Positions 1 to 21,112 of a stretch of DNA of 37,160 nt are shown here, one piece after another (positions within the stretch are counted from its first letter, which is position 1; every line of letters starts with the position of its first letter). The position numbers and the translations under genes were made by a program. Origin of the DNA: Craspedostauros australis (lineage: Eukaryota). The notes under the pieces are model-generated. The model worked only from the letters and a program-made list of their open reading frames with translations. It was not told the origin of the DNA and ran no database searches. The stretch spans positions 1-37,160 of the forward strand of contig JALAGF010003637.1 in NCBI GenBank assembly GCA_030167865.1, in the 5' to 3' direction.

Positions 1-85
1 GTCATCGTCTATGCTGTCGTAAATTCCGTCCGCGGTTTCATCAAAGCAAGGCCCCGTCTTCCGCTACGGTATTTCCAATTGATCG

Positions 86-480
86 CTATCGCGCTTCAAA
101 CTGGATCACTATTGTTGCATCATCGTCGCGGATTCGTAGAAGTATCCATGGTGGAAGCAAAAATCGTCCGGTTTGAAGGTAGGAGCGACATCAATTTGCA
201 GGGTGTCGTTGTGAGTGGATTTCAGGCCCGCGTTGAGTGCATTCATTCTCATAAAGACAAGCCACGGCACAGCATAGCACATTCCATCACAGCGCATCGC
301 AACATAGTTCCACTTACATCGCTTCGTGCGCGTCTTGTAGAGGATGCGGAACCCGCATTGCCGACATCGCACGGGATCGCCTCCCTTGATCATGTTGCGG
401 GCACCGCAGTCTCCGCATCGGTACTCCACACCGCGCATGATTGGCAGCGGCGTGGCGCCTGTCTGTGTGGTGCTATCCAT
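86..480 (-). CDS. RPB12: RNA polymerase I/II/III shared subunit RPB12/RPABC4, 61 aa; exons 480-318 and 108-86, intron 317-109
   Basis: Exon 1 encodes the zinc ribbon YRCGDCG...[25 protein letters not shown] donor at 317 and an AG acceptor at 110-109 join T+TG to give the conserved C-terminus LIQFEAR then TAG (88-86). Spliced length is 186 nt, in frame. Confidence 0.95.
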
Positions 481-910: not shown

Positions 911-3900
911 TCAAAATAGAATCGACACCATCCCATCATCTTCTGAACCATCCGCTTTGATGTCGATGGCGATCCGCAGAATGGAGCCGCAGCTGTTCGG
1001 GCCTCCTTTCTGTGGGACTTGCGAGTGGATACTCCACGTCCCCTGCTTGCCACCAACTTTGACACGAACGGAAGCGGTGTTGATGACGGGCACGAACACG
1101 TAAATGTACTTGCCCAACCGCTCCAAGTCGCGCTTGAGGTTGATCTCGACGGTGTTGTTGTCCATGAGGTTGAAGCTATCAACTTCCAGTCCGCACGAGA
1201 AGTGAATATCGCTACCGATGTATTGCGGTCGGCTGGGTGTCACTGGACGGACATGGAAGATCTCCGTCTCGTGCGCCTGCAATCTGCGGCTGAGGTATTC
1301 ATGTTTCGTCGATGCTCCACCGCCATTCTGTTCTGCTTGGGTGTCTGCCGTTGGCGTCGTGTGATCAATCCACTGGCACTGCCCGGACCAGAAAGAAAAG
1401 ACATGATAGCCGTTGTGGGAATGCGATCGCGAAGCTAGGGAATTGGGCGATGTTTCGCCGTCGCGGCCGGCACTATCTATCAGTTTGCCTGCATCATGTG
1501 GCGTCTGAAGTGCTGTCCGAGGCACCCGCACCTCCGATGGCTCGTCAGACCAGTTGCTGACAGATAGCATCGTCCATGTGCCGACGTTGTCGGCAACGTG
1601 CAAGCAGCTGCGTTGCCTCTCGTTCGGATGCGGCGCCGGCTGATCCAGTTGGAACGAAGATAGTCTTCCAAAGTGGGTGGCCGCGTGGTTGGAATCCAGT
1701 TTCAGCTGCTCCCGTTGATCGCCCTGCCGTGCGTGATAATCACGTATACCGCCCTCCTTGTCAGTACACCACAGCCGCAGCATGCTTGGCAAGCCGTGTG
1801 CTGGCGCGGAGTGCAAGTCGAGAATGACAGCGCTGACGCCTGTCATGGGGAATATCTTGGTGAGAATGCTGGTCCTGGATGGAATCACTTTGGTCAGATC
1901 ATCTGACAGGAGCAGCATGCCGCATGTCATCGCGATGATCGATGCCGCGCTTGTGACTTCGATGTCCGTCAAGCTGGTGCTGGTTCCCAGCAGCAAGCAA
2001 TCGGGGTCGTTGTGCCACCACCGATGACCCATCGGGGCTCGGTTGATGCTGTTGCGGATCATACTACGCAGTGCTGGCAGAGTTCCGTTGTCCCACCAGG
2101 GAAGCGGGAAGGCCGGGTACCACGTGGGGCCTGTGTCAGCAGACACTCTCATTCCGTCCACGTAGCCGATGCCAGCGCCGATAGGACAGCCGCAGCCAAT
2201 CAGGAAGACGTCGGGACCGGCCGCCTTGCGGATGGTGGCCAACGCGAGGTGCATGGTCTGCGCTCTCGTCATGGATGGGTCAAACTTGCCATTTCCCTCT
2301 AAACACGCTGCGTACAGAAAGTCGATCTTCAGCACGTCGAACCCCCAATCCTGCACCGCACGTCGAATGCACGTCGATACGTACTCGCGAACTTCGGGGT
2401 TGGTGGCGTCCAGACCGTAAAAGAACTTGCCGCAGTTGGACGAGTTGGCTGGGATTCCGTGATCGTTGTGAATGATCCAATCCGGGTGATCCTTTGCGAC
2501 CTTGGAATGCTTGTCGCACGTGTACGGTGCTAGCCAAAGACCAGGACGCATCGAGTTGGCTTCGATGTCACGAGCGACGACGCGCATGTCCGTGAACTTG
2601 CCAGGTTTGAAGTTGTCCCAATCACCCCATGCGGTCATGTAGCCGTCGTCGACTACGGAGACATTCGTGGGAATGACCTTTCGCATACCTTCGAGGCGAG
2701 CAAAGTTCGACCGCAAGGCACCCTCCGAGATGTCCTCGTAGTAATGGTACCAGCTGCACCATCCTGTGAGCAACGGCCCATTTTGCAGAGGGCGGGCCTC
2801 GTTGTGCGAAGCGACGGCATGCAGAAAATCTGCCATGGGTTCTTCGTCGTAGTGGTGCGGGGCAACGAGCTGCGCGTAGCACCAGTCGGTGGAGATCCTG
2901 GAGGTCACCAGCCCTTTGTGCGACACGCTCATCTGCGCACATCGCAGTCCAGCATCCACGAGGACCAAACCCAATTGCTGATGCTGTGCCAGCCAACCCA
3001 GCACAACCGCCGGACCGCCTATCTCGTCCATCGGTTCGTCTCGTGACGTGGTCAGACAGGTGAAGAAGTCTGATTTGTATGCGGTCCGAGGAGCGAATGT
3101 CGGTTGCGTGGTGGACTCGCGGAGGTTGTCCACGGCCATTCGGGATCCATCTTGAATTCGGAATGATGGTGACAGGGGCATGCTGGCGCCAGCATTGAAC
3201 GCCCCGCTGAAGGTGCTCGGTAGCGCAGGCCGCGGCTGTTTGCTGCCGCGCGGGATGGAGCCAGTATACGACCAGCTTTGGTATCCTTGAATGTAGATGT
3301 GTGACGCTGGTTCGCCCATGTCGACGGATCCTTCGAAGACGGTGATCGTATCGAGATAAGCGTCGGAGTATGGTGCTGGCGGCAACTCGACCTTCCACAG
3401 GAGTGGCAGATTTGAGAATCGAGCTGCTGTTGTCGGCATTGCGAAGGTGACGCAGATGAGTTGGTTGATGTCAACATGATCTGCAACCGCATCCGTGGCT
3501 TCCTCTTCATTCTTCGCGCGGGGGTTCCGATTATGTGTGCTTTCGTCCAACAGGATGGATTTCTCCTGTGAATCATGTGGCTGTTGGAAACGGTCCCACT
3601 GCATGGGATACATCTCCCGATTACCCTTGCTGCGTTGGTCGTATTCACGAAGAACCTTCTGAAAGTCCTGCTTGATCGGGACCGGCAAATCGGCATCATC
3701 CACATGCGTGGAAGGTCTCGAATGCGGTCGCAGATAGAGTTGCACACCATCGCATTGTCCAATGCCGCGGATGGAAAGCTTCGTGTTCTTGTGCAACACG
3801 ATGTCCTTCGAAGTGTAGACCTCCTCCGTAACGGTCGACGTCGCCTCTGCCGCAACGCACCCGCAGGTGATGCAATTGAGATGACGCCTGCTTCTCTGCT

Positions 3901-4234
3901 GCATGGTGTACTGCGCGACACCCTGCCAAGCTGGTTTGTGGACGATCTTGAGCAACGCATTCGATTCCAGCGCGTCTCCGGCCGGGCTGGTGAATGTCCA
4001 GCCCAACCTCTGCGTGTGGTTTGCAGCTGGTGCGGTCGATGGGTGTTCGAGAAACGGCGCCTTCTCGTCTTCGTTGGCTGTTTCTTGCGATGGTGCATTG
4101 CCATCACCGCCTGCCTTTGGGGCATCGCGCGTCCGCGCAGGTGTCTGCGTCACGTCCAGTTCGATTCCGTGCTGCTGTCCCACTGAAGGACCGATGCGGA
4201 GAGACCATCGCTTGAGCCCATTGCTGTCGGTCAT
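911..4234 (-). CDS. Glycoside hydrolase family 36 alpha-galactosidase, 1107 aa, apparently intronless
   Basis: Clan GH-D motifs in order: GWCSWYHYY, VDDGY..AWGDW, PGLWLAPY, LDATNPEV, LKIDFL (nucleophile Asp), GCGCP, MRVSAD (acid/base Asp), WHNDPDCLL. Long N-terminal extension with no obvious signal peptide. Confidence 0.88.
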   Translation of the reverse strand: MTDSNGLKRWSLRIGPSVGQQHGIELDVTQTPARTRDAPKAGGDGNAPSQETANEDEKAPFLEHPSTAPAANHTQRLGWTFTSPAGDALESNALLKIVHKPAWQGVAQYTMQQRSRRHLNCITCGCVAAEATSTVTEEVYTSKDIVLHKNTKLSIRGIGQCDGVQLYLRPHSRPSTHVDDADLPVPIKQDFQKVLREYDQRSKGNREMYPMQWDRFQQPHDSQEKSILLDESTHNRNPRAKNEEEATDAVADHVDINQLICVTFAMPTTAARFSNLPLLWKVELPPAPYSDAYLDTITVFEGSVDMGEPASHIYIQGYQSWSYTGSIPRGSKQPRPALPSTFSGAFNAGASMPLSPSFRIQDGSRMAVDNLRESTTQPTFAPRTAYKSDFFTCLTTSRDEPMDEIGGPAVVLGWLAQHQQLGLVLVDAGLRCAQMSVSHKGLVTSRISTDWCYAQLVAPHHYDEEPMADFLHAVASHNEARPLQNGPLLTGWCSWYHYYEDISEGALRSNFARLEGMRKVIPTNVSVVDDGYMTAWGDWDNFKPGKFTDMRVVARDIEANSMRPGLWLAPYTCDKHSKVAKDHPDWIIHNDHGIPANSSNCGKFFYGLDATNPEVREYVSTCIRRAVQDWGFDVLKIDFLYAACLEGNGKFDPSMTRAQTMHLALATIRKAAGPDVFLIGCGCPIGAGIGYVDGMRVSADTGPTWYPAFPLPWWDNGTLPALRSMIRNSINRAPMGHRWWHNDPDCLLLGTSTSLTDIEVTSAASIIAMTCGMLLLSDDLTKVIPSRTSILTKIFPMTGVSAVILDLHSAPAHGLPSMLRLWCTDKEGGIRDYHARQGDQREQLKLDSNHAATHFGRLSSFQLDQPAPHPNERQRSCLHVADNVGTWTMLSVSNWSDEPSEVRVPRTALQTPHDAGKLIDSAGRDGETSPNSLASRSHSHNGYHVFSFWSGQCQWIDHTTPTADTQAEQNGGGASTKHEYLSRRLQAHETEIFHVRPVTPSRPQYIGSDIHFSCGLEVDSFNLMDNNTVEINLKRDLERLGKYIYVFVPVINTASVRVKVGGKQGTWSIHSQVPQKGGPNSCGSILRIAIDIKADGSEDDGMVSILF

Positions 4235-4828
4235 GGCGAAAGCCTTTCAGCGCAATGGAAGACTGCGCTTTGTTCTGTTTTGTGTGTGTTGCTCGTATTG
4301 GTACGCGTGACGCAAAGATGCTGATGATCAATCGATCAGTCAGTCAGCTGCTTGGAGCTCTGGTACGACGATGATCAGTTGGCTGTGGCATCCGCTCTCG
4401 TGGTGGTGATTGTGTGGTTTGTATTGTCATAAGTTGCACAACTACCAGTCGGCAGCAGCGCGCTCTGTAGGGGACTTGTCACACGTTGAGAAGGTGGCCA
4501 TCAACGAAACTGATGGCTGGCGAATTGATCATGTGACGTCTTGAGACCACAATCGGAGTTGTTGATGTCTTTCTTTGGAGTCCATGGTACATTACATTAT
4601 GTAACATTAATTGACGGAACGGATACTTCACTTGTTGGACCGTCAAAGTATGATAATAAAAATAATAACCATTCCCACGCAGCTTTAGAAATCTTTTCAG
4701 ATCGCAAGATCGCAGCATGAGCCACAACAACAGTCGCAGCAATAGCAACGACCACTCTCACAGAATCTGCTCATAGACAGCGGCGCAGGCAAACCCGCAA
4801 GCATCAAAGAGAGAGAAAGACGTTGAAG

Positions 4829-7800
4829 ATGGCTGAAAATGGAGTCCCCAGGCTGCCAGATGGAGGCACGAACTCGGGCGAAGCGACGGATAAGGATTCC
4901 TCTTTGATCATCACGCTCGTCTGGACTAGCCTTGCGGGTCTTCTGTTGTGTTGGTACATGCGGCCATCCATCCAAGCAGGTTCGCCGGACATCTCCAACG
5001 ATGAACGGCGCAAACGCATGGCCGAAGCGGCAGCCAATCGCCTCATGACGCAGTCCGCGACGGTCAGATCCATCCAAGTTCCCGATAAGATGGTTGAGTC
5101 CAAAATCAATTCCGGAGTTGACGAAAGTGGAGCTCTGTCCAAGGAGTCTACCGTCCCACAACACCAAGCGCCATTGGCGGCACCGGAAGTAACACCGGAT
5201 GTAGAATTGGAGGCAGTCCAAGCACCACCACCACCACCACCAGTACCAGAAAAAGTGGTCGAAGAAAAGGAAACCATCGCAGCGGCACCAACACCAGAAA
5301 CGACGACGGCCACCGAGCAGTCTGTCTCCGATACGGAAAACCTGCCAGACCAGCAGCACCCAACGGCGAACGCAGCCCCGAAGGCGAAACGCAAGAAGCG
5401 ACGGCGGCCACCCATGCCGCAGATTTTCTGCGAGGCGCTATCCGAGATACTGCAGGTCCATATTGTGGTGGAACAGCGCGATGATGCCGAGGCATGGGGC
5501 GGATTGGGGTGGTGGAAATCGGCCAACAAGCACGCTGCGATCATCTCTCTGCCTTTGCATCGGCATTACTCTGCCGAATACAGTCAAGACGGTGAGATGA
5601 CACAAGGTGCCATCGAAGAGCTTGCGCGTTGTTTGGTCGTTGACCTCGTGCCACGAGCAGTCGACATTGTGGATCTGCAGCATGCCATCAGCATCTACAA
5701 CCGAGCTGCCGAGATAGCAAGAGTCGGCCATTCGCCCCATTTGCTGAGCCGACAGGATGCTGGATTCCTGCAGTTCGTCTCGGCCGTGCAGAAGATCAAG
5801 GCTTGGGTGATCGCGAAGGCTGCTGAATGGTTGGAAAGCGATGATTCGATCACCAACTACCAGGCCGCCGTACCAGGTGACGTCGATATCGGCGACGACC
5901 TGTTCAGCGATGAGTACGACACGTCTGTTCTCACGCCGACACCGTTGACGGACGCAACAGCAGACAGTGCGGATCGGCGATCTCTCGCCTTCCTCATTGA
6001 TCTCCTGGTCAACTCACCGTCGCAGATTTCCATCGGTTTCTTGGTCGACGTCAATGATGCTGTCGAGGTCTGCAGTGTCTCCGAGAAGATTGTCGGCGAT
6101 CTGCTGCGTCGGTTGAACAGCCAGATCTTTCCCATGAACGAACCGTCGCAACGTCAACCCGATTCGGCACTCTCGCAGGAAGCTACCAAGGTTCTTGGAG
6201 CGATTGGGACGGTCCTCACGTCTGCGAAGCTCGCGACCTCTGCTGCACACCGCTTGATCGAGGCTGCCGTGTCGGATCTGCAAGAGAAACAGTCCAGCGT
6301 CAGCGTCCGTGCCGACAGTGGAGATCATCACAACGGAGGAAGGTCGATGGAGCAGCGGCAGGTCTTCGTCACCCTATTCACAGCAGTCGCGTACTCGCTG
6401 GACGATTCGGCTCTATTGCTGGCGCACAAGACACGCTCACAGCAACGCAATCGCCCAACGTCCTTCCCTTCCATGTATCTGAGAGAACTCGAAACCCTCC
6501 AAGCATTCCCGGCATGCGTCTTCACCGCGCAGAGTCCCAAGTCGCCATTGCAGCAGCAGATGAAATCCTCGCATCGCATGATTGCGCAGGCTCTGTCCGT
6601 TTCTGAACGGTTCCTCAAGATTGCGTTGAAAAACAAGCGAATCGTCTTCGAGTTCCTTCGGCAGGTCGTTGAAACCAAGTGAGTTGGACGGAGATTATGT
6701 GCATGCAACCATCGCTCGGGCAAGAAATCACTCACCACTTCTGTCCGTCGCTTCTTCCTTTTCTGCCCCTCGCTATTCACTCGCCTTGGCGCAACAACAT
6801 CGCAGCCAACGACTCATCGATTTGCCAAAGGTGGAACTCGTGAATCTTGACGCCGACAGTGCAATGTCGGAGGCTGCATCGATGGCGTTTCTGAACGGAT
6901 TGGCGTACGCGCTGGTCGGATTTTGCGGTACATCGCTGCAGGACCGGTTCCAGCAGAAAGGTCATGGCATCTTTGATGCCGCCTACTTCGACGATTTGGG
7001 CTTCAACAAGGCCATGGATTCGCCGCTCTTCGTGAATGATACTTCCACATGGAACAGCGCGAGCACTGTCCGCAAGAAAGATGCGGGCAAGTACTCTGGC
7101 AGCACGGAACTCTTCTTTTTGACTTCGGCCATGTTGCGGTTGGGGATGCAAACGCTGCTGAAGAAACAGAAGGAATTCCGGAACGTGCATGGGCGACTCT
7201 TTGACGAGCTCCGCGTTCCGCAACACTCCAAGACTATCCACCCACGACAGCTCAAGTACGACATCAACCCCAAGGTCGCAGCGCTGTCCGGATTCGCATG
7301 CTTCCTCAACAACGCCGAGCTGATGACGCCGGTGACCAACTACTACCTCCTCCAGCTGGAGTGGGTGCTCTCCGTATGCATCAATTCGGAACAGAAGCGA
7401 CTGCTGCTGCCAGATTGGATCTGTAAGGATGTCTCGCGTTGGCTTGGATACGTGGCGAAGACGTCACCGCACTTGCTGACGCCAATCCAAACCGACCGCG
7501 CTGTCGATTGCTGTGCGAAGCTCCTTCAGCTCGGGATCGCGGATCACAACTTCTCTCCCATCGTCATCACGGCCTTGGTTCGTGTCGCATCCAACTTCAT
7601 CAATGTCAGCGTCGACCGCGCTTGGCACCGACAACGCAATGCTCGCAAGGGACCGAAGGTGGAGGATACGCGGGTATTGGAGATCTACACCTCGTTCGAT
7701 GCGAAGGATCTGGGAGTTGCCGTCTTCGCCAATGAGCAGGTCTGCACGACATTCTGTCCCACGCTGATTCAAACATTCTACGCATTGGATGCAGTGGAAG

Positions 7801-10431
7801 GTCTCGACATGGACCGGGAGATCGATTTTGACAAGTTCGGGGTCAAATCGGAGGTCGCAGATTTGCTGATGCGATTGTGGGCTCATCCCAACGGCAAGTG
7901 CCGTGCATCCGTAGTAGCAGTATCTGGTGACCGCTACCTGCGCTTTGTGGGCTCCGTCGTTTCCGCACTCGCTGTATTCCTGGATGACGCAGTGCAAAAA
8001 CTCGGGACAGTACTCAAGATGTTGCGGCAAGAATCGTTGAGCGACATTGACAAGCGCTTCGTGGACGGGCATCTGTCCGGTGTCAGCAGCGGCCTGCTGG
8101 GTTCACGCCGCCTGTTGATGCTGCTGACCAAGTTCTCTCACGAAGAGCAACTTTGCAGGCATCTTTGCGGCGTGCTACCTGGATCAGAACGTGCATTGAG
8201 AGACGTTTGCAACGCCTTCGTCCATTTCTTTGACATTCTGACGCAAGCTGACGGAGGCACCAACCCAGAGCTTGAAATCGGTCTGTCCAAGTCAACATCT
8301 CAGTTGCGTAAGGATTGGGATTCGTTGGGTGACGACGACAAGAAGAGTATCCAAAAAGAGATTCAGGACGCCCGCTCGTTGGCAAGCGCGGAGGGCGGGC
8401 TGAACGTTTCCATCATCTGCCATCAGCTGATGGCGCTTCTCGCCAAGTGGCACTTGTCATTCTCAGATACAGAGGATCGGGCGGATCAGCCCTCTCCAAT
8501 TTTGAAGATCCTCGCAAAGCATGAGGACGTCGATCCCGACCAGTACCACGGTATCTTGAACCGCCTCATCCAGTTCGAACCAGTTGAAGCTGGAGACGAT
8601 CCGGCACATTCGCTGCTTGCGCATGACGGATACGCATTTGAAGACATGGCGGAAGAGTGCGGGTATGACTTCAAGGATAGCAGTAGACGCAAGCAACGAT
8701 CGAAACATGACCAAATCACGCATCGAGAACTTCAGAACATCGCCAGCGACCAGGACATCCTCAAATTCCTCGATGAGCTCGCACAAGAAAGCGCAGCACA
8801 TCGACGTGACGAAGCTGCCAATACTACGGATCCAAAAGAGGCGAAGGTGCTGGAGGCAACAATCATGCATGATTCAAACGTTGCGAGCTTTGCTGAGCAG
8901 GAGGCAACGTACGAAAATGCGATGTCGGACTGGGTTGTGTCATCATCCCCTTTCATGAATGAAGCGAACAGATTCCGACATTTCTACGATGCGTCGGCCA
9001 GATCCAAATCGACCCAAGCATCGTCCAAAACGCTCATTGCGGAGGCACGAAAATGCCACAAGCTGTTGCCAACGCCTCACGCCAACTCATCCATCTTCGT
9101 TTGCTTTGCGGAGGAACGGATGGATCTGTGCCGAGCGATGATCACCGGCCCAGTGGACACACCGTACTCGCTGGGTCTGTTCACATTCGACATCTTCTTC
9201 CCATCGAGCTATCCCAACTCCCCTCCGTTGGTCACGTTCATGACGACGGGCGGAGGACAGATCCGCTTTTCTCCCAATCTGTACGTGGATGGCAAGGTGT
9301 GCCTCTCACTGCTGGGATTGACATTCTCGAGACAGGATCACGAACGTTGGACGCCGAAGGAGAGCTCCATCGCGCAGGTCCTCATATCAATTCAGAGTCA
9401 AATCTTCGATGTTGCGGAGCCGTACTTCAATGAAGGTTCAGGTAAGTTCGTGCGTTCGTTGACTGTGGTTATTGAGCGTGGTCGTCAGTGTAATTGTTGA
9501 GTGTGGTCGTTGGTGGGGTTGTACGAGTATGCGTTGGGTCACCGAGTGAACGTGCATGATGCTCTTCAGTACATCCGAGTGCCACAGCAATCTTCTCACA
9601 CGAGTGTTCGAAATGAATCGTCCATCTCCAAATGAATGCTGGCGGGGGCACATCGACCATGTTCGATTCACAGGAATCCCGCAATTCGTGAAACAAACAG
9701 CAGCGGGAAAGGAAGGATCGTGGAAGCATAATCTCAGTTTGAGACTGGCGACCCTGCGATACGCTGTGTTGGACGTGCTGCGTAATCCACCGTGCGGATT
9801 GGAGAGCGCCGCGGTGCAATACTTCTCTCTGTGCAGAAAGCGGATTGTCGTGCAGGCGCATCGATGGATGCTGGAGTCCAAATCAACACAACTCTTTGCG
9901 AAGTACCAGAAGGTGTACAGGAACTTGGTATCAACGCTGGCAGATACCAAGTACTCGAGTGAAAAGGCGTTGCAACCGCGGAAGGATGACGTCGATGCAA
10001 TCTTGCAACTGGAAGCATCGGAATCCACCGTCTTGCTGAAGGGCATGCCGACACCAAGTGACGAAGCAGAGTCCGAATCCGTGACCGGAGTAGCCTTGGA
10101 TGCAGTGGATACTTGCGAAGCAGACCAGAAACAAAGTGGACAATCGCCGGAGACCAGTGGCGCTGACTATCCGCGCGTTGAAGTTCCGGACGAGAAGTTG
10201 GGCGTCGGAGCGGTAGAAGCAACAGAATCAGCCACGGCTGAGCCTGTTGCTAACAACCCATGGGCTCAATTGTCTCACAATGCCAATGCGCTACCCCAAG
10301 AGCGGCAGCAGGTGGAAGAAGCAGAGCTATCACAAAGCAGCGCACCGCTGACAGCGAACGCCAATCTCAAACAGAGTGGTAGTGATGATGAGTCTAGTGA
10401 CGACGACGAGGAGGAGGACATGTACAGCTAA
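4829..10431 (+). CDS. Three-exon ~1747-aa protein: N-terminal TM helix + VIM motif + Ufd2/UBE4-like core + BIRC6-type ubiquitin-conjugating (UBC) domain + acidic tail; exons 4829-6678, 6806-9441, 9674-10431
   Basis: Intron 6679-6805 (GTGAGT...CGCAG, phase 2) and intron 9442-9673 (GTAAGT...CACAG, phase 1) join the three track ORFs in frame (5244 nt total). UBC motifs: IFVCFAEERMDLCRAMITGPVDTPY..GLFTFDIFFP..YP..PP...TTGGGQIRFSPNLYVDGKVCLSLLG...W.PKESSIAQVLISIQS...EPYFNE. Ufd2-like motifs: STELFFLT, LPDWICKDV, FDKFGVKSEVADLLMRLW, LRFVGSVVSALAVFLDDA. Confidence 0.85.
6679..6805 (+). other. GT-AG intron 1 of the Ufd2-UBC gene (127 nt)
   Basis: GTGAGT donor, CTCAC branch-like site, pyrimidine-rich tract, CAG acceptor. 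Removal restores the frame (AA+C then QRLIDL). Confidence 0.85.
9442..9673 (+). other. GT-AG intron 2 of the Ufd2-UBC gene (232 nt)
   Basis: GTAAGT donor right after EPYFNEGS. The acceptor at 9673 is phase-compatible and yields ...HNLSLRLATLRYAVL, matching the expected last UBC helices. The CAG acceptors at 9569 and 9587 are out of phase. Confidence 0.78.
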
Positions 10432-10563: not shown

Positions 10564-12093
10564 TTACAGACCACACCTTTGCTGTCCTTGCGGAGGTCCG
10601 TAGCGCGATGGGTAGACTGAGAAGCTGAGGAATGTGTTCTGAGCTTTCCGCAGGAACTCCACATCCTCGTCGCAAAATCGAACCATGTTGGGACCCGGTG
10701 GACTATCCACGAACGAGAATGCCCCGCGGAACCCCTCCGGTCCGACGTTGACGGGCGAATTCAGATGGGCCGGGATCACTCTGTCAAACGTCCATTCCGT
10801 CGTGATGTAGTCCAGCCATTCTTCCAGCTTTTCCGGCTCTCGCGACAGGATGATCTGCACGACGGTATAAATCAGCGGTTTCCCCTCGGCGCTGTAGGTT
10901 TCAAAGTCCAATGTTTCGATTCCGTCCGACTTCCATTGGTACGGCATCCACCCTCCCCAACCGTAGGGATAGGTGGGGGTGGAGAGCGCTGCCAATATCG
11001 GCTTGATGCCCAGATCGGCAATGCCCGATCCGGGAAAGAAGAAGTTGAAGAGCAGCACTATCCGTCTCCATCCCTTTCTGCGATTTTCCGGCGTGTCTTC
11101 GACCAGCTCGTCCTTGGAGTCGCGAGCATGGAACAGCAGCGCCCGGGTGTATTCCGGTTCCTCCGTCAGGATGGCAGGCGGTTCCCTGGTGACGGAAAAC
11201 ATGGCGTCGCAAATCATCAGGGTCTTGCTCGGTTTGTGAATCAACGCGACGTCCTGGTACTTGGATGCGGGTCCAGGCGTGACAGTGAGCACCTTGAAAT
11301 CGATGCTGTCTCCGAAGATGGTCCTCGTTGATTCCACGTCGGTCGGCAACGGTTTGGCCCAGCTCGGCAGGCCCAAGAATCTGTTCGGCAACGGCACGGG
11401 GAAGGAGTACTGCTGATCCACGATGTAAAAATCGGCATTCGGGAATTGGCGAGCAAAGGGCCCGGCGTTGACCTTGTGCTCCACAGCCACCGACGGCAGC
11501 ACGATGTGTCGGACTGGTCCGTGCTGCGCAATCAGTTCGTCGAGCAAAGCCAGGCACTCCTTCGTGGGTGCGACAGGTGCGTACACCAACAGACCACCAT
11601 CGACGGTGATGACCGTCATACGAATGGGGACCTGCACGTAATAAATGCCGATCAGCTGATCGAAGGTCCAAACCTGATTGGGCACGATCTCCTCACGGAT
11701 GGTCTTGCGTCGCGAGTAGGGTGCCACCGGCAGCGCGGGCCACAACGGCCATTGGCTATCGGCGGTGATCTCCGCGTTGGCCGTGAGCGGCGATGCTGTC
11801 AGCGCGGCTGCGCTTGCCGCGATGGCTGAAGCCTTTCCCATCGATCCGAACCATGATCGTCGGTCCATCGTGGCGCTCGTTTCGGTAGCACTCTCGATGC
11901 CGTCATTGGGATTGTCATGATCGGTGCTGGGAATGGCAGCTGTCACGGTCCTGCTTCCGGCGCTCCGTTGCTGCTTGAGTGATCGATGAGGACTGCGAGT
12001 AGTGCCGCTGAGTTGCTGCGGCTGCAACGCCTCAGATGGCGACATCATCGCCAGCAGGAGGAGCGCACATGGCAATGTTCTTGGCCGCGGCAT
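10564..12093 (-). CDS. DUF4336-family protein (cyanobacterial/plastid type), ~509 aa, with a complex N-terminal targeting presequence
   Basis: Mature part WPLWPALPVAPYSRRKTIREEIVPNQVWTFDQ...VPIRMTVI...GGLLVYAPVAPT...EHK...F.R.FP.A...IPAH matches the DUF4336 pattern as recalled. The first ATG is at 12093; the track start at 12108 is GTG. Confidence 0.82.
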   Translation of the reverse strand: MPRPRTLPCALLLLAMMSPSEALQPQQLSGTTRSPHRSLKQQRSAGSRTVTAAIPSTDHDNPNDGIESATETSATMDRRSWFGSMGKASAIAASAAALTASPLTANAEITADSQWPLWPALPVAPYSRRKTIREEIVPNQVWTFDQLIGIYYVQVPIRMTVITVDGGLLVYAPVAPTKECLALLDELIAQHGPVRHIVLPSVAVEHKVNAGPFARQFPNADFYIVDQQYSFPVPLPNRFLGLPSWAKPLPTDVESTRTIFGDSIDFKVLTVTPGPASKYQDVALIHKPSKTLMICDAMFSVTREPPAILTEEPEYTRALLFHARDSKDELVEDTPENRRKGWRRIVLLFNFFFPGSGIADLGIKPILAALSTPTYPYGWGGWMPYQWKSDGIETLDFETYSAEGKPLIYTVVQIILSREPEKLEEWLDYITTEWTFDRVIPAHLNSPVNVGPEGFRGAFSFVDSPPGPNMVRFCDEDVEFLRKAQNTFLSFSVYPSRYGPPQGQQRCGL

Positions 12094-12566
12094 GGAGCGA
12101 TATGGCACGCTACGAAGAACGTTGGGAGGACGTGTTTGGAGCGGAGAGTACGAGCCAGTGGAGCGTTTGTAGATTCAGGAGGCATCTTCTCTTCGTCTGT
12201 CTGCGAAATGATTGCTCAAGCCAGGTGTATGGTATGGGATGGTGTGCACTCGTACACATGTGATGGGTGGCGAAGCCAATGATGCATCGGTGATGTGTGA
12301 TGGCAGAATTGTTGATGGTTGGTCGTTGTGACTCAGAAAAATGAGGTAATGCGGGACTTAAGTGTGATACGGGACTAAATAAGGGGAGACGTTTCGCGAT
12401 CTTTTGATTCACATCTCACGTCGCCACATATTTGGTGCTGGGGATTGTGCGGAGAGCAAAGCAAGGCAAAGCAAGGCAAAGCAAGGAACAGCAGAGAGCA
12501 GAGAGCAGAGATAGACGTGTGCGAGGTACCCAAATCAGCGCTGCTGTGTCTTCTGCTCGTGCGGAG

Positions 12567-13622
12567 ATGAGGTTGCAGCTCAGAGGTGGTCGATTGAACT
12601 CCATCGTCGTTGCGATGATGTCGTCGTCATCGGCCCTTTCATCCAGTGCGGCGTTCTATCGCATCGGAACACCAGGCGTTGCGTGGGGCGATGCCGAGCG
12701 CACCCAATGGCGGGAACAGACCAAAGTACAGCGCTCGTACAAGTCGGAGGTGCTGGACAAGCTGAAGTCATGGATGAAAGACCGGCCCGATGGTCCATTC
12801 GATCTCGTCGAGTACGGATCGCTGTCGCATGACCCGCAGCGGTATCCGCTGGTCGCCGTCAAATCCAAGGCGTGGGACGAGGACAAACCCTGCGTGCTCA
12901 TCACGGGCGGCACGCACGGATACGAGACGTCCGGCGTGCAAGGGGCGCTCCAATTCCTGCAGTCAGATTTGATGGATGCGAAGTACGTTGACCGCTTCAA
13001 CTTCGTCATTGCTCCCTGCCTCAGCCCGTGGTCGTACGAGACCATCCAGCGTTGGACCTTCACGGCCGACGATCCCAACCGCAGCTTCCGGCATGATGAC
13101 GATGCGCAGCGCACGGAAGAGTCGAGGGCCTTGATGCGGTGCCTGCACGACGAGCTTTGCATCCCGCAGTGGATGTGCCACCTGGATCTGCACGAGACGA
13201 CGGACACCGACGCCACGGAATTCCGCCCAGCGCGTGACGCCAAGGAGGGCAAGGCGAAGTTCGTGCAGTCGGGCATCCCGGATGGATTCTACCTGGTCGC
13301 CGACGCCCCCAATCCTCAGTTCGACTGGCAGGCTGCCATCATCGAGAGCGTGCGCAAGGTGACGCACATCGCACCGCCGGACGATGCAGACGCCAACACG
13401 ATCATCGGAATGCCGGTTGTGCGCGAGGGCATTATCGCCGTCGACACGAGGCAGTACGGTTTGTGCGCATGCGTCACAAACGCCAAGTACTGCAGCACAA
13501 CGGAGGTGTACCCGGACAGTCCCAGCGTGACGGACGCCATTTGCAACGACGCGCAGGTTGCGGCGATTGATGGAGCGTTGCGGTACATCCTGGAAAATGA
13601 AGGGAGCAAAGAGGAACCATGA
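12567..13622 (+). CDS. M14 zinc metallocarboxypeptidase / succinylglutamate desuccinylase-aspartoacylase-like protein, ~351 aa (alternative starts 12615/12618)
   Basis: M14 motifs GGTHGYETSG (HxxE), DPNRSF, HLDLHETTD and TTEVYPDS. The N-terminal YRIGTPGVAWGDAER resembles proteobacterial M14 homologues. Intronless. Confidence 0.87.
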   Translation: MRLQLRGGRLNSIVVAMMSSSSALSSSAAFYRIGTPGVAWGDAERTQWREQTKVQRSYKSEVLDKLKSWMKDRPDGPFDLVEYGSLSHDPQRYPLVAVKSKAWDEDKPCVLITGGTHGYETSGVQGALQFLQSDLMDAKYVDRFNFVIAPCLSPWSYETIQRWTFTADDPNRSFRHDDDAQRTEESRALMRCLHDELCIPQWMCHLDLHETTDTDATEFRPARDAKEGKAKFVQSGIPDGFYLVADAPNPQFDWQAAIIESVRKVTHIAPPDDADANTIIGMPVVREGIIAVDTRQYGLCACVTNAKYCSTTEVYPDSPSVTDAICNDAQVAAIDGALRYILENEGSKEEP

Positions 13623-14199
13623 TACTACTCATCATGATGGAACTCGATACCATGGAGAATGGGTTGTCAACGAATGCTGGGACGAGGTATGATATGCTCT
13701 GCTCTCTAAACTATTATATTAAATTATATAATATATCATCAGAGTCATATAATCGATGTCATAACGCGTGCAACAACAGGTATTTCATGTCCTTCACGTT
13801 TGCTTGTAAAATATTTTGCCTGGCCGTCTCTCGACCATTTGTCTGTGTGCGCGTTGTTGGCGAAAGATGTCGTGTTTGTGTGTGTTTCTCAAAGAGAAAC
13901 TGCCTGTCTGTCTGAATCGCCGAATTGTGACTGTCTTCGCATTTGTCAGATTGAATTTTTGGCGCGAAACGCGAATCTCATCAGGAGGCGCATCCTCCAT
14001 TGTTCGTTCGCTCGAGAGAGAAAGACACAATGTGCTCCTCTTGCAGTTGGCATCCAACCTGCTGTTTCCATTGTCATACGTGCACCATGCACAACTTGAT
14101 ATTGATTCCAGGATCCGCGCAACGCATTCCTTTCATCTCTTCCACGTAGTCTGATTCAAATCAAATGTTAGTAAATCAAATCGATTCCGTCGGTTCCAA

Positions 14200-15012
14200 T
14201 CACAATTCCCCACCGATCAAAAAGACGACCATGGAAGTCATGGCCTTATGAATTTGCTGCTCGATCAGTTTCATTCCCAACAACAGCAAGATGGAAACGG
14301 CGGTTGCCCAACCCGTTCCGACCTGCTGCTGCAATGCCCGAAAGACGGAGACGACTCCCATGATGATGCATTGCAAGGCATCCGCGATGGGCTCGGAGAG
14401 CCGTTCGAAGTAGGGCCGGCGTCGTTGCTTCTTCGCGTTTGTCATGAGAATCGTGTAGGGAGAGTGGCGTTGTTGCTGCTGTCCGATTGCAGTGTGGTCC
14501 GGTTGGATGAGGTTGGCCACGATCTCTGCCATGTGGTTGGATTGCGAACAGACCTCATCGACAAGAGATCGCTGATGCAACGATTCGTCGACGGTGGATG
14601 GCGTCGCGCTGTGTTGCGACATTGAACTCGATGACGAGATGATCTGCCCCGCCCATTCGTCGTTGGTGACGACCTTTTGCTCACGCGTTGGCGACTGCTG
14701 CCGTCGCGTGTAGTGCTCCACGATCTGCTTCATCTCGATGGCGTTGTATTCCGCGAACGTGGCGTGGTTCCTGGAATCATGCACGACCTTGGATGTGTCG
14801 TTGGTGCCGATGGTGTGATGGTCGTCGACCCATGTGAGCGTCGTGGTCTCGTCGAACTCGGCGCGGTTGGGGATGTGCAACGTCATGATGCAGGACGTGT
14901 CATCGTGACCATTGCCGTTGGCGTTGTTGTCTGCAGTGGCATGCATCTTGCGTAGTGAAGGGTCGGTGCAGGATAGGCACGATGGCGATTTCAAGTTGGC
15001 GGTGTCGATCAT
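14200..15012 (-). CDS. Hypothetical protein, 270 aa, hydrophobic C-terminal segments
   Basis: ATG-initiated ORF with coding-like composition and no recognisable domain. Confidence 0.45.
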   Translation of the reverse strand: MIDTANLKSPSCLSCTDPSLRKMHATADNNANGNGHDDTSCIMTLHIPNRAEFDETTTLTWVDDHHTIGTNDTSKVVHDSRNHATFAEYNAIEMKQIVEHYTRRQQSPTREQKVVTNDEWAGQIISSSSSMSQHSATPSTVDESLHQRSLVDEVCSQSNHMAEIVANLIQPDHTAIGQQQQRHSPYTILMTNAKKQRRRPYFERLSEPIADALQCIIMGVVSVFRALQQQVGTGWATAVSILLLLGMKLIEQQIHKAMTSMVVFLIGGEL

Positions 15013-15653
15013 TCTGAAGTGATGATGATGCCGATTGTGTTGTTGATGCTGATGTTGATGAAGTGGAGGGAGTTTGATGCACAGCGCAACGAAATGGAAT
15101 GAAACGAGCTTGCTGCTGCTCTTGAAGGAACTCTGCAGTATGATGCCAACAACAGATCGCGCGATCGACGAAGATGCAAATGAAGAATGTTACTCTACAA
15201 ACAACAACACTGTTCTTGTCGTCCTGTGGTGGCGTGAGTCATCGCCGGATTTGTGATGTGCTCGATTTGGCGGAATGAGCGAACGGAAATCTTTTTTGGG
15301 GAAGCCGATAACGACAACCGTTAAAATCTACGTTGACACGCTAACGTAACGAAGATAGTGAGGAGTTGGCAGCATACGAGCGAAGGACGGACGCGGTCTG
15401 AGCATGCCAAAGATACGGGTTCACGTATCAAGACGAGTTTCCTGGTCGCAACCGTGCACATGACGACCTCAATGACAACATGTTACAACTACTCTGCTCC
15501 TGTGCAATACCAGTACGAATGCATGTAAAATACAATTTGTTTGCTGTTGTTGCTAAATTGATTGTCGCGTTTCATGTTACTGTAATACTGTTGCCTATCG
15601 CACTTGCGCACGATACGATACGATCCGCGCATGGCGCTGTATGCGATTCGATA

Positions 15654-17072
15654 TTACTTGGTCGGCAGCGGCAGCAGAAGATCGATCTCCTCCTGCGGAA
15701 TACCCAGCTTGACGAGTTCTTTGCGCCGCTTGAGGAGGAGGACCTTGGCTTCGATATCTTCCGTGGAAGATTTGTTGGTGCGTTTCTTGGTGCGCGTTTT
15801 GGATTTGGAACGTGATTTGGATCGTTTGGGTGTCTCGTCTTCTTGCTGCTGCTCACGCAGATGGCGCTCCGCCATGGATTCCTTCCTGAGGCTTTGGGAG
15901 CGCTTCTTGGGACCGCGCTTGGCCGGATCGTCGGCGGCGTTGTCATTGAGGTTCATCTCACCAATGTTGGATGCGATGTCGTTGGCGTGGATATCGTCGC
16001 GATCGGTGTGAAGGGACTGATCCAGTTGCGAGGCTTCGGCTCTTGCCGCGGCCGCACGCCGGCTCATGGGACCGATGCTTTTGCTACGGCCCTTTTTGGT
16101 GACGCGAGCGGCGGTGCTCATGCGACGGTGCTGCGACTGCGCCCGCACGGGGCTGTTGGCCACGAATGACTTCTTGCGTCCCTTGGGGGTGGTGGGGGGC
16201 GGCGTGCTGATGGGCGAGCGATGGTGGTGGCTGGAGGAGTCCATGGAGAGCGGCGGCGGAGGCGGTGCCATGGTCATGACATCGTCCAGGTCGTCCTGGC
16301 TGGAGTCCCCCGTTCTGTAGCTGTGGGCAATGTCGACGTGGCTGATATCGTGGGCGGCTTCGTTGGCGTTGCCGTGCAGGTTGGACTGCTGGTGCTGTCC
16401 CCTGTGCCTGGTGACCTTCCTCTTGCCGTGCTGCGATCTGGGTGAGAGCAAGGCCGAGTTGGCAGAGCGATGGTGGGACGAGGAGGACAGCGGCGGAGCG
16501 GAGATGCCTTGCGATGCGGGAGGCGTGGCCGCGGATGCCTCAGTGGAGCCATGGTGCGAATGATGCATGTCCTTGACCTTCAGCTTGAGCTTGCGCTTGG
16601 CCGACTTGGGCGTGCGTCCGCTGGTGGTGGTGGTCGGCATGGAGCTGGGCGGGCTGATGTTGCTTGGGTTGTGGCGGCCGCGAGTCATGCTCTTGCGGCG
16701 CTCGTTGGATGGCTTGCCGTTGACGAGCTTCTTGCCGTTGACCCTGACGGGCTTGGCCGACACGCTCTTGCGCTTCTCCAGCTGCTTGGGGATGCCCGGA
16801 GACAGCAGCTTGAAGAACTTGCTGGGTTCCTTGGTGTTGGCGATCTTGAAGTTCTTCTTCGGCTTCTGGCTGGGCGTCGCCGGGGCTTGTTCGACCGCCA
16901 TGTTCATGCTGTTCTTGTGACCGACGGTGGAACCGGAATGAGTTGTGAAGGCAATGTGGGTGGTGGTGGTGGGAGAGGAGACTGGAGGCTTGTTGCCTTT
17001 GATGCTGTGTCTGCCTGTTTGAGCGGATGTATGTGGTGGTTGTTGTGTCTCTTCGGTGTAATTGTAACGCAT
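15654..17072 (-). CDS. Hypothetical basic, S/K/R/H/P-rich largely disordered protein (start 17072 or 16907) with a short helical C-terminus
   Basis: Long ORF with strong C/G third-position bias from about 16907 downward. Ends EDIEAKVLLLKRRKELVKLGIPQEEIDLLLPLPTK. Start uncertain. Confidence 0.62.
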   Translation of the reverse strand: MRYNYTEETQQPPHTSAQTGRHSIKGNKPPVSSPTTTTHIAFTTHSGSTVGHKNSMNMAVEQAPATPSQKPKKNFKIANTKEPSKFFKLLSPGIPKQLEKRKSVSAKPVRVNGKKLVNGKPSNERRKSMTRGRHNPSNISPPSSMPTTTTSGRTPKSAKRKLKLKVKDMHHSHHGSTEASAATPPASQGISAPPLSSSSHHRSANSALLSPRSQHGKRKVTRHRGQHQQSNLHGNANEAAHDISHVDIAHSYRTGDSSQDDLDDVMTMAPPPPPLSMDSSSHHHRSPISTPPPTTPKGRKKSFVANSPVRAQSQHRRMSTAARVTKKGRSKSIGPMSRRAAAARAEASQLDQSLHTDRDDIHANDIASNIGEMNLNDNAADDPAKRGPKKRSQSLRKESMAERHLREQQQEDETPKRSKSRSKSKTRTKKRTNKSSTEDIEAKVLLLKRRKELVKLGIPQEEIDLLLPLPTK

Positions 17073-17441
17073 AGCTGGTGTCTGATGATCTTCTTCGCTT
17101 TGCTTTACTTTGGTTTGCTTGTTTGGTTTGGTTTGGCCGGTGCGATTGTTTGTGAGTATGGAAGTCGTTGATGCGCGCAACAGCTCCGAATTCAATTGTT
17201 TGGCGCGAGAGTTGGCGCGATGCAACGTGGACAATGCAATGATGTGACGAAAAGGCGCCTTTCTTGGTTCCTCCGTTTCTCGTGTCTGGGTTGTGCTCTT
17301 TTCTTTTCTTGGTTGCTGTCGTTGGTTGTTGATGGTCAGTTGTTGACGGGAGATCTGTTTACGCTTTGACTACTTTGGCTCCTGTTGCTGCTGAGGTGCG
17401 GAACTACTATACGATTCTTCTGCTCTTCTTGATTCTGAGAG

Positions 17442-17509
17442 TGCTGATGGTGTTTGCTGATGATTGCGTCTGCTGATGGTTGCGTTGCTGATGGTTGCGT
17501 CTGCTGATG
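17442..17509. repeat. Imperfect minisatellite, ~15-16 bp unit TGCTGATGGTTGCGT(C), about 4.5 copies
   Basis: Read directly from the sequence. Confidence 0.75.
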
Positions 17510-18705
17510 CCACTTCGGGTCGGGTAATCTGTTTGCCTGCGAGAATTGTGTCGGAAGAGGCGGTCTCTGCTGTCGGAACCGAATGAGTTCCTCCACCTGT
17601 CTCCGCGGCATGTAAAGGAATGCAGAGGTCGATGTTTGTGTTCGAATCAAATAGAGTCAAGCACCTCCACTGCACCTCCACGACTGTGTGGTTTGATTGT
17701 GTCGGTGTCGCATTCTTTTGCGTCTTTGCTGCGCCTCGTCTGGCGCTTTTGTTGTCGTTGGCGCGCGTCGTGTCTGCAGTGATCGTGGCAGGTGTCAACG
17801 CAGCATTAGTCGGTACTACCACCGCTATCAACGTTATGCCCATTCACACACGCACTACTACCAGCCAAACAAGCGAAACGCACTTGACACAATCACACTG
17901 GTACTGGTACAACGTGATGCTGGTGAAACAAGAAGACCAGTGAGTTACCACCTCGTGCACGAGCTCCACAAGTCAATCACTATTCTTCCTGACTCGGTAC
18001 TGACCCTGTGTCATGCGCCGCTTCAGTTTGTCTTGACAGAATCATTGGGTATCATTTCATGTCACGTGAGACAGCATCACTTAATAAACCGTGAATGATA
18101 CTACCTCGGTGGTATTTTTGTGGTTCTGTCATCAGCACAGCGAAGGGCACAGACAGAACTTTGCCAAACTTGTACCGGTTTCACCGAACAACTTAGAAAA
18201 ATGAGGTCTCGGCGGAACTGGACCAGCTGTTCTATGTGTGACTGTGCAGGGTTGGCAACTCTGTGTCAAGAAATGCCAACAGGCAACGTCGTCGCGTCCA
18301 TCGCTCGCTGTTGTGCTGGATACGGGAGAGAGGTTCCTTCATCTCTGTCACGGCATCATCCTCCTTGGCCTTCATCCCGGTATTCGTGCACGTATGCATT
18401 TGTGCATTGCTTCATACGAATACTCTATGCAGGACGGGACTGTACCTGCAATGTTCTCTGTATGGGATTGGCAGCAGTATCGTTCTCCTGTTCGCGTCAT
18501 TCATTTCTGCGCATGGGGACAGCATTTGACTTCGGCTTCGTTTCGGAATGCGTGACGCCCCAACTTATCGGCTCTCCCAAAAGTAAAATCTGTGCCTGTT
18601 GGGTGATAATTCCACCATGTTCCTCTTCACTCTCTCCTTCCACAACATGCCCATTCCCTTCTCTTGCTCTCTCTCTCTCTCTCTCTGTATCCTCGGATAA
18701 TAGCT

Positions 18706-20493: not shown

Positions 20494-21112
20494 GGCGATG
20501 TATAATACAACAGTAGTTGGTGTTTGATTGCTTTGTGTGATGTCGTTACGTGTGATGTTGTTGTGTGCTGTGTGACGTCTTCTCTGCTGTCTTTCGCCTG
20601 GCCATGGTGTTATGGTATGCATCTCTGCCTCAAATCATGTGGCTATTGATGCCATGATGTGATCAATGGTGGAGCGCGATGAGTGGGTGATCAATCAATC
20701 AATCAATCAATCACAGAGATGCAGACATGCGAACACGGTCCGTTGCAGGTTCGTGATTTGGCTTCAACCCGGCAGAATTATAGCCCGTTCGCAACGTGCA
20801 TTTGTGTCACACACACTTCGTTTTGGCGCCATTTGTTTGTCACTCCTGTATGACTCAATGCTCGTGACTCGATCTCCTCCCAATCATGGGACTCTTTGTT
20901 GCTGGGAAATGTACGAACTTTGAGGCAAGCACAACTGGAGAAAGACGCAGAGCAAGGTCTTTGAATCTATTCTCCTCGTAGCTCGTACTCGACATATTAT
21001 AGAATACTTCCACCAACACTTGCAACGAGATGCGAATGTTGCTCTTTGACGAGTGTGATCGGCGTATTATGCTATGCGAGTACTCTACTTGTGTCAAACA
21101 CGTGCGCGACAT

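Follow-up and report, generated by a model that had tools for sequence, protein, structure and literature searches.

A predicted membrane-anchored Ufd2-core/E2 protein with a candidate Cdc48-docking helix in Craspedostauros australis

The stretch of DNA analyzed here is contig JALAGF010003637.1 of the Craspedostauros australis assembly GCA_030167865.1 (37,160 nucleotides, positions 1 to 37,160 of the forward strand), hereafter called the window. It carries, on the plus strand at 4829-10431, a three-exon gene for a predicted protein of 1747 residues. From its N-terminus on, this protein has a short acidic segment, a hydrophobic span, an Arg/Ala-rich helix that matches the VCP-interacting motif (VIM) by which some cofactors bind Cdc48 (p97/VCP), a disordered linker, a body resembling the ubiquitin enzyme Ufd2, and a ubiquitin-conjugating (UBC, or E2) domain of the BIRC6 type. 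We read the whole as a membrane-anchored Ufd2-core/E2 enzyme with a Cdc48-docking helix of the VIM type, a reading that we hold to be probable with considerable room for doubt. All features of this gene are on the plus strand.

Results

Gene model, relatives and translation start

The exons lie at 4829-6678, 6806-9441 and 9674-10431 (stop codon included), as placed by open reading frames (ORFs), splice sites and homology, and the spliced reading frame is open. Both introns (6679-6805 and 9442-9673) have GT..AG ends. The ORF at 4823-6682 runs to a GTGAGT donor at 6679, and frame and homology restart after CAG at 6805; the ORF at 6669-9500 runs to a GTAAGT donor at 9442, and the UBC domain restarts after ACAG at 9673. 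The model aligns by BLASTP with a full-length relative, P0018, as one segment (30-1605 against 6-1573) that spans both junctions, and it is also collinear with the relatives P0024, P0027 and P0028. The 5' end and the splicing of the model rest on sequence and homology. When exon 1 is aligned with 13 relatives, 10 of their ORFs stop at a common Lys or Arg column that lies one residue past the window's exon-1 translation; at this position one more ends in Gln and two read through. This shared end, among genes that are about 20-30% identical, suggests that the position of the first intron is common to the window and its relatives.

Relatives were collected by exhaustive HMMER searches, which gave 18 matches with exon 1 and 51 when seeded with the full-length P0018. 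Word-based homologue searches with exon 1 alone and with the exon-1 alignment each gave no matches, and a cluster look-up for 10 relatives returned nothing informative, the entries being called 'hypothetical protein' or having no name. Two relatives have a named source, P0028 (a 'hypothetical protein' of Thalassiosira profunda) and P0024 (a marine eukaryote transcriptome entry), and these sources point to diatoms. The N-terminal comparison covers 16 N-termini, i.e., the window and 15 relatives (P0002-6, 9, 10, 11, 13, 14, 15, 18, 24, 27 and 28). Sequences were left out where they were truncated at the N-terminus (P0001, P0008), repetitive with only a short matching stretch (P0007), C-terminal fragments of exon 1 (P0012, P0016, P0017), members of the 90% cluster of P0003 (P0020-22) or ORFs of exon 2 only (P0023, P0025, P0026, P0029-34).

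The ATG at 4829 is the first in frame past a stop codon at 4718-4720, and in its context (AAGATGG) position -3 is A and position +4 is G. The in-frame Met codons that follow are M44, with T at -3, and M64, with C at -3. If one of these were the true start, or if a 5' exon had been missed, the N-terminal 60-70 residues would be untranslated as modeled, and the span and the motif would be artefacts of the gene model. Two automatic gene calls in the cluster of one relative (P0020 and P0022) do begin downstream. However, the first ATG also has the better context, and the module of span and helix, which lies in frame, is retained in 16/16 N-termini, with P0018 aligning from within the span on. We therefore consider such an artefact extremely unlikely and take the protein to start at 4829.

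A hydrophobic span close to the N-terminus

Counting M1 at 4829, the segment LIITLVWTSLAGLLLCWY comprises residues 26-43 (L26-Y43; 4904-4957), and the maximum of a 19-residue Kyte-Doolittle scan over all 1747 residues is found at residue 26 (1.92). The first-pass annotation had placed an N-terminal hydrophobic segment at about 4904-4957; these coordinates are exact, and the segment is both the hydropathy maximum of the protein and retained throughout the 16 N-termini. The uncharged stretch extends over 21 residues, S24-M44 (4898-4960), bounded by D23 upstream and R45 downstream, and is predicted to be a single-pass signal anchor. The segment in front of it (residues 1-23; 4829-4897) is acidic, with a net charge of -3 over the 15 pre-span residues, and is predicted to be luminal or exoplasmic. 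The AlphaFold2 (AF2) model of exon 1, built with 18 aligned sequences, has a mean predicted local distance difference test score (pLDDT) of 61.9 and shows a helix at 23-43, a loop, a helix at 57-79, a disordered stretch (80 to about 185) and a helical domain. Residues 1-21 have a pLDDT below 50, and the helix over the span belongs to a block in which pLDDT reaches 91.

A hydrophobic span without charges, 16-30 residues long, is present in all 16 N-termini. It is preceded by an acidic residue in 12 of them, the first charged residue past it is basic in 15, and the flank charge (the 15 residues after minus the 15 before the span) is positive in 14, with a value of only +1 in the window. The pre-span segment is up to 110 residues long, and in P0018 the span begins at residue 6. 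The topology that we infer for the anchor is the one predicted from these sequences, N-out/C-in (type III). This orientation would leave the motif and the enzyme on the cytosolic side, where ubiquitin enzymes and Cdc48 work.

Alternatively, the span could be cleaved off as a signal peptide or could open a bipartite plastid signal, in which case the enzyme would reside in the lumen of the endoplasmic reticulum (ER) or in the periplastidal compartment, e.g., together with the symbiont-derived Cdc48 of the symbiont-specific ERAD-like machinery (SELMA; ERAD, ER-associated degradation). The sources of P0028 and P0024 would suit this, as they point to diatoms, which are described as having a second, periplastidal Cdc48 system, and so would the early span of P0018. 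However, the window has a 23-residue acidic segment before the span and no basic n-region, and uncharged spans of 16-30 residues resemble transmembrane segments and not the h-region of a signal peptide. The acidic residue before the span (12/16), the basic one after it (15/16) and pre-span segments of up to 110 residues also speak for an anchor. A cleaved signal is thus very unlikely, and the span is treated below as a signal anchor.

A VIM-type helix behind the span

Past the span lies the VIM-type motif RRKRMAEAAANRL (R60-L72; 5006-5044), with the strict signature at R61-R71 (5009-5041). This stretch, RKRMAEAAANR, is the sole match to R-x5-AA-x2-R in the protein, and the exact VIM match that had been reported at 5009-5041 is confirmed in coordinates and residues. 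The VIM consensus is given as Rx2h3AAx2Rh, where h is hydrophobic, and its gp78 form as RRx2h3AAx2Rh, the last Arg being described as pivotal in gp78 (PMC5389986). The same source describes a second class, the VCP-binding motif (VBM), with the consensus EhRRRRLxhh; both are basic helices that share one hydrophobic cleft on the N domain of p97, in which their orientations are opposite (PMC5389986). Set against the extended consensus, the window reads R-KR-MAE-AA-AN-R-L, in which both the trailing hydrophobic residue (L72) and the additional Arg of the gp78 form (R60) are present and the h3 block is only in part hydrophobic. The VBM consensus does not fit the window, where DERRKRMAEA has the basic run and M, without h after E or a hydrophobic end.

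The motif lies on a predicted alpha-helix of residues 57-79 (4997-5065), with a mean pLDDT of 86 for residues 61-70. It is followed by a low-complexity linker rich in Pro, Glu and Thr (residues 80-185; 5066-5383), which is predicted to be disordered (pLDDT below 50 over 80-181).

By itself, a pattern of this length is weak evidence. When the whole protein was shuffled, at least one match to R-x5-AA-x2-R occurred in 970 of 20000 shuffles, and in the first 100 residues in 50 of 20000. The six-frame ORFs of at least 100 residues in the window (29,441 residues) hold two matches, RKRMAEAAANR included. The motif is lifted above chance by its position and by its conservation in the relatives. A phmmer search of PDB sequences with the helix region (39 residues) gave no matches at E up to 10.

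Conservation of the module among relatives

An Arg-rich segment follows the hydrophobic span in all 16 N-termini. The strict pattern is found at most 60 residues past the span in half of them (the window, P0003, 4, 6, 11, 13, 14 and 27), and shuffling these 60-residue post-span segments gave an expectation of 0.21 matches against the 8 seen, an enrichment of about 40-fold. Elsewhere in the 13 sequences scanned, the strict motif occurs once, as a second copy in the linker of P0013. P0018 and P0024 retain one of the two motif alanines. Several relatives have VBM-like Arg-rich helices at the same site, e.g., P0028 (EEREARRRRALLRF), P0005 (EEIRQRRIAAAARY) and P0018 (EEERKRRRLQAIKRF), and the sequences of P0028, P0005, P0006 and P0015 come near the VBM consensus. 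P0006 has both types in tandem, TIRKRRLERL followed by RLDRTRAAAMR, and in P0015 ERLRRRRLEAL is a second Arg-rich copy farther along the linker. The column of the last Arg (R71) was flagged as at least 90% conserved in the 16 aligned helices, and by eye it is Arg in 15 of 16. The linker around the helix is unalignable among the relatives.

Conservation of the motif in orthologues, proposed in the first-pass annotation as a check, is therefore found in part: the strict form stands in eight of 16 and the last Arg in at least 90%, whereas the other eight N-termini have degenerate or VBM-like helices.

Arg-rich helices are doubled in three relatives. P0013 has two strict VIMs, P0006 a VBM-like helix and a VIM, and P0015 two VBM-like helices, which suggests that docking is multivalent or that the motif is still turning over.

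The post-span segment might instead be a generic basic juxtamembrane region, serving topology, lipid contact, or a sorting or nuclear signal, with the VIM match as a by-product of Arg/Ala-rich composition. The frequency of the short pattern in shuffled proteins (970/20000) would agree with this, as would the richness of the post-span regions in R and A and the half of the N-termini that do not have the strict pattern. However, composition is accounted for in the shuffled segments, which hold 0.21 expected matches against 8. In addition, the motif lies 17-35 residues from the span and does not flank it, the helix is kept while the neighboring linker is unalignable, and the relatives without a VIM lean towards the VBM, the other Cdc48-binding consensus, and not towards random basic sequence. 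We regard a merely basic segment as unlikely and prefer a Cdc48-binding helix.

Eleven more distant Ufd2-core/UBC proteins (P0036-45 and P0051) were also inspected. None of the 11 contains VIM or VBM patterns, and none of the same 11 has an N-terminal hydrophobic anchor by eye. With both elements missing there, the anchor-plus-helix module appears to be confined to a diatom-type clade.

A Ufd2-like body ending in a BIRC6-type E2 domain

Residues 195-616 (5411-6676) form a helical domain that resembles the N-terminal region of yeast Ufd2, according to VIA-align and conservation. The top VIA-align match is 2qiz_A (Z 10.1, root-mean-square deviation 6.0, 269 residues aligned, Ufd2 -5..292); as the next row follows at Z 9.3, the Ufd2 likeness of this part is suggestive only. 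Foldseek of the exon-1 fold against PDB gave nothing at E up to 0.001, with weak armadillo-repeat rows only, and no Pfam family was found for the exon-1 helical domain.

Just after the linker, at 5384-5530 (residues ~186-233), lies a conserved block without a Pfam family, which begins with a basic run, KAKRKKRRR, and continues as PPxQxxCEALS...WGGxGWxK, the part with which the helical domain starts. Its Q198 and C201 are invariant in 14 aligned sequences.

The likeness is firmer in exon 2, where residues 1-700 (6807-8906) form an armadillo-type domain like the Ufd2 core, as indicated by Pfam, AF2, Foldseek and VIA-align. Pfam Ufd2P_core (PF10408) matches exon 2 with 45.5 bits against a cut-off of 20.4. 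AF2 modeled exon-2 residues 1-700 with a pLDDT of 83.8 and a predicted template modeling (TM) score of 0.85. Foldseek of this model against PDB gave seven matches with E up to 0.001, each of them to yeast Ufd2, and the next match has E 9e-3 and a TM score of 0.11. VIA-align of the same model to Ufd2 291-~903 gave Z 17.1-18.2 over 507-540 aligned residues, with beta-catenin next at Z 13.7. In these models the body is collinear with yeast Ufd2 (~1-903) up to the expected start of the U-box. No U-box was found among the Pfam matches up to E = 1 in exons 2 and 3.

In that place stands a UBC domain, the first part of which is at 8997-9441 and the rest in exon 3 from 9674. Pfam UQ_con matches it with 71.4 bits behind the Ufd2 core, and P0018 carries the same two families. 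The closest solved relative is the UBC domain of BIRC6 (143.6 bits, E 6.8e-41), followed by UBE2O and UBE2Z. The codon of the putative catalytic Cys is at 9300-9302, in GKVCLSLL. No BIR domain and no BIRC6 or UBE2O N-terminal domains were found among the Pfam matches. With a BIRC6-type E2 domain in place of the U-box, the protein is a Ufd2-core/E2 chimera, neither a canonical Ufd2/E4B nor a BIRC6. The Ufd2-like core named in the first-pass annotation is thus borne out by Pfam and by fold, and the BIRC6-type E2 domain that follows it is an addition to that description.

The HPN triad of E2 enzymes reads SPN in the window (~9270-9290); relatives have H, N or S in the first position and human BIRC6 has N, so SPN in place of HPN seems to be normal for the BIRC6-type subgroup.

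The combination of core and E2 domain recurs among the relatives, as PF10408 and PF00179 occur together in 24 of the 51 matches of the P0018-seeded search. In a protein atlas, the best rows were generic UQ_con clusters (0.85-0.86, below the reliability mark). A cluster of 64 members with PF00179+PF10408 is a lead only, its recognition being below the reliability mark.

A model of the helix with a Cdc48 N domain

As a stand-in for the organism's own Cdc48, another eukaryotic one was sought in metagenome contigs, where a degenerate pattern for the N-D1 linker of Cdc48 matched 118 loci. Fourteen intact Cdc48 N domains, 57-77% identical to one another, were extracted from these loci. The domain chosen, L028:70-666, lies within an 839-codon ORF and matches CDC48_N with 80 bits and CDC48_2 with 50 bits. 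An archaeal Cdc48 was rejected as a stand-in, being too distant.

Runs in which window residues 50-88 were modeled with this N domain gave interface scores (interaction prediction score from aligned errors, ipSAE) of 0.72, 0.73 and 0.74, with a median of 0.73; the best of three controls scored 0.03. Among solved complexes, 51 of 78 attain this mark, as do 2 of 108 mismatched pairs, a calibration made on complexes other than peptides. The runs agreed in at least 97% of contacts, and the pLDDT of the partner was at least 61. On the peptide, N57, R60-A65, A67, A68, R71, L72 and Q75 make contacts, and on Cdc48 residues 31-36, 50-54, 68, 70 and 139-143 (the EAYRP loop). This loop is named as part of the VIM/VBM site (PMC5389986). 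A complex prediction with the Cdc48 N domain, one of the checks put forward in the first-pass annotation, thus places the VIM residues at the interface with a score far above the controls; since similar complexes have been solved, the pass obtained with the stand-in shows likeness and not binding. Functional Cdc48 binding by the helix is moderately likely.

Another possible partner of the helix is an E2 enzyme. In ERAD, helices such as the G2BR of gp78 and the U7BR of Cue1 bind the backside of an E2, and the helix of the window could in this way bind its own UBC domain, or a separate ERAD E2, to tune activity, and not bind Cdc48. In a search of PDB sequences with a profile of the 16 helices, gp78 G2BR peptides rank first (3h8k_B, 3fsh_C and 2lxp_B; E 0.11-0.18), the helices share the features S-x-[DE]-E-R ... 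A-x-x-R-F with this region, and the protein has an E2 domain of its own on a long tether. However, the matches are not significant by E-value and their alignment requires two 3-residue insertions. The strict VIM pattern is about 40-fold above the expectation from composition, and it is through exactly the VIM residues that the modeled complex with the Cdc48 N domain stands out from its controls. The G2BR is specific for Ube2g2, and the UBC domain of the window is BIRC6-like. A role as an E2-binding helix is therefore quite unlikely, and docking to Cdc48 remains the function that we prefer.

The G2BR adjoins the VIM in gp78, and it provides the top three of the weak matches of the juxtamembrane-helix profile.

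Neighboring genes

Upstream of the gene and divergent to it, with about 600 bp of intergenic region between, a 1107-residue ORF on the minus strand (911-4234) has a weak match to a melibiase/GH31-type TIM barrel (48 bits). Downstream, Pfam identified a DUF4336 protein (10567-12174, minus strand, 317 bits), a weak match to AstE_AspA, the succinylglutamate desuccinylase/aspartoacylase catalytic domain (12408-13619, plus strand, 29.4 bits with a cut-off of 25), a Glyco_transf_49 protein (18709-20634, minus strand), a CRAL/TRIO protein (23072-23734, minus strand) and a 1464-residue ankyrin-repeat protein (24991-29382, minus strand). None of these five Pfam-matched neighbors (10567-29382) is related to Cdc48. 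A complete eukaryotic assimilatory nitrate reductase, with Mo-co, dimerization, cytochrome b5, FAD and NAD domains, is contained in one ORF on the minus strand at 31955-34672. On the opposite strand, a 913-residue ORF without a Pfam family (31850-34588) is probably the antisense shadow of this nitrate reductase.

Discussion

The features described above can be combined into one mechanism. The protein would cross the membrane once, with the short acidic N-terminus in the lumen and the remainder in the cytosol, as in VIMP/selenoprotein S. About 15 residues past the span, the Arg/Ala-rich helix 57-79 would be the motif that binds the N domain of Cdc48/p97, being of the VIM type in this organism, and a disordered tether of about 100 residues would join it to the Ufd2-like body that ends in the BIRC6-type E2 domain. 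By docking in the cleft that separates the two lobes of the N domain, the helix would hold Cdc48, a protein-extracting motor, close to a self-contained enzyme for building ubiquitin chains. This would take place at a membrane, for which the ER or the outer plastid envelope continuous with it is the simplest choice. Substrates under extraction could then have their ubiquitin chains lengthened on the spot. Either partner, the enzyme or Cdc48, could recruit the other. The topology, Cdc48 binding in vivo, the choice of membrane and the chain-extension activity are inferences.

A similar layout is found in VIMP, which is described as crossing the ER membrane once, having a short luminal end and recruiting p97 to the ER through RX5AAX2R in a cytosolic helix (PMC5725882). 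The first 80 residues of the window protein have the same arrangement of a span followed by a motif helix. However, VIMP is an adaptor of 189 residues with a selenocysteine tail, whereas the window protein runs on into an enzyme of 1650 residues. No sequence relationship to VIMP was detected, and among the matches of the helix profile with E up to 10 there was no chain of VIMP, the motif being too short to exclude a relationship. gp78/AMFR is similar in another respect, as the window fits the gp78 form RRx5AAx2Rh with its extra leading Arg and trailing hydrophobic residue, and both proteins are predicted or known to be membrane-bound ubiquitin enzymes. In gp78, a RING E3 with several spans, the VIM lies at the C-terminal end, by the CUE domain and the G2BR, whereas the motif of the window is N-terminal, beside a single predicted span, in a Ufd2-core/E2 protein.

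Among Ufd2-family enzymes, a VBM within the N-terminal 16 residues of mouse Ube4b, the Ufd2 homologue, is described as the element that binds VCP (PMC2654131). The window protein is like UBE4B/Ufd2a in that a Ufd2-type enzyme carries, at or near its extreme N-terminus, a short Arg-rich helix that is known or predicted to bind p97, and several relatives of the window are VBM-like at this site. In contrast to the window protein, UBE4B is soluble and has a U-box at its end, and the helix of the window fits the VIM better than the VBM. Yeast Ufd2 is a Cdc48 cofactor described as using the C-terminal tail of Cdc48 and not an N-domain motif (PMC3791797). It shares the collinear fold over Ufd2 ~1-903 with the window protein, in which Ufd2P_core scores above its cut-off, but the window has a UBC domain instead of the U-box, and Ufd2 has no membrane span. 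BIRC6 and UBE2O resemble the window protein in the UBC domain (BIRC6 being the closest and UBE2O next), in being very large and in having the E2 near the C-terminus. They differ in that the body of the window protein is Ufd2-like and in their N-terminal Pfam domains, which were not found here.

Several observations weigh against this interpretation. At the level of the motif, R-x5-AA-x2-R by itself is hardly above chance, with about one protein in 20 expected to match, and the h3 block of the window consists of M, A and E and is hydrophobic only in part. The profile of the 16 helices gave nine weak matches among PDB sequences, none to a VIM-bearing chain, and the three best of the nine (E 0.11-0.18) are the E2-binding G2BR of gp78 discussed above. 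Among the relatives, the strict motif is absent from eight of the 16 N-termini, and P0009, P0002 and P0010 fit both the VIM and the VBM consensus poorly. The eight that keep the motif are not independent events, because the relatives share ancestry. With respect to topology, the 15 residues past the span in the window have a net charge of -2. Finally, the calibration of the complex score does not extend to peptides, the Cdc48 N domain was that of a metagenome eukaryote and not the window organism's own, and the pass may reflect memory of the solved complexes 3TIW (gp78) and 5KIW (VIMP).

Even so, the anatomy of the protein, the conservation of its N-terminal module, the Ufd2 fold and the E2 domain are direct results of the computations. 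The resemblance of the first 80 residues to VIMP, together with the precedent of the N-terminal VBM in Ube4b, leads us to read the protein as a membrane-tethered, Cdc48-docking chain-building enzyme. The recruitment of Cdc48 to a membrane, as the first-pass annotation had proposed, is supported computationally and agrees with all checks that were run, i.e., those on the span, the helix, conservation, the complex model and the Ufd2 core. A further interpretation, which we offer tentatively and consider possible rather than probable, is that the protein represents a diatom lineage-specific, membrane-tethered E4-E2 machine in which the U-box has been swapped for a BIRC6-type E2 and chain extension is hard-wired to Cdc48, with a docking site that has drifted between the VIM and VBM types.

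Each of the modules is known, namely the signal anchor with a VIM as in VIMP, the Ufd2 core and the BIRC6-type E2, and we have not found the combination described. Among open-access papers and preprints, no paper was found that describes a Ufd2-core/UBC fusion or a membrane-anchored form of one. In the databases, Ufd2-core/UBC fusions are unnamed or automatically named, and the named relatives are entered as 'hypothetical protein'. If our reading is true, the protein would link Cdc48 directly and physically to the assembly of ubiquitin chains on a membrane in a major algal group, and it would be a candidate factor in ERAD or in envelope quality control. It would also define a family whose docking site is occupied by both VIM-like and VBM-like helices, and such a family would be a natural experiment on how the VIM and VBM classes interconvert.

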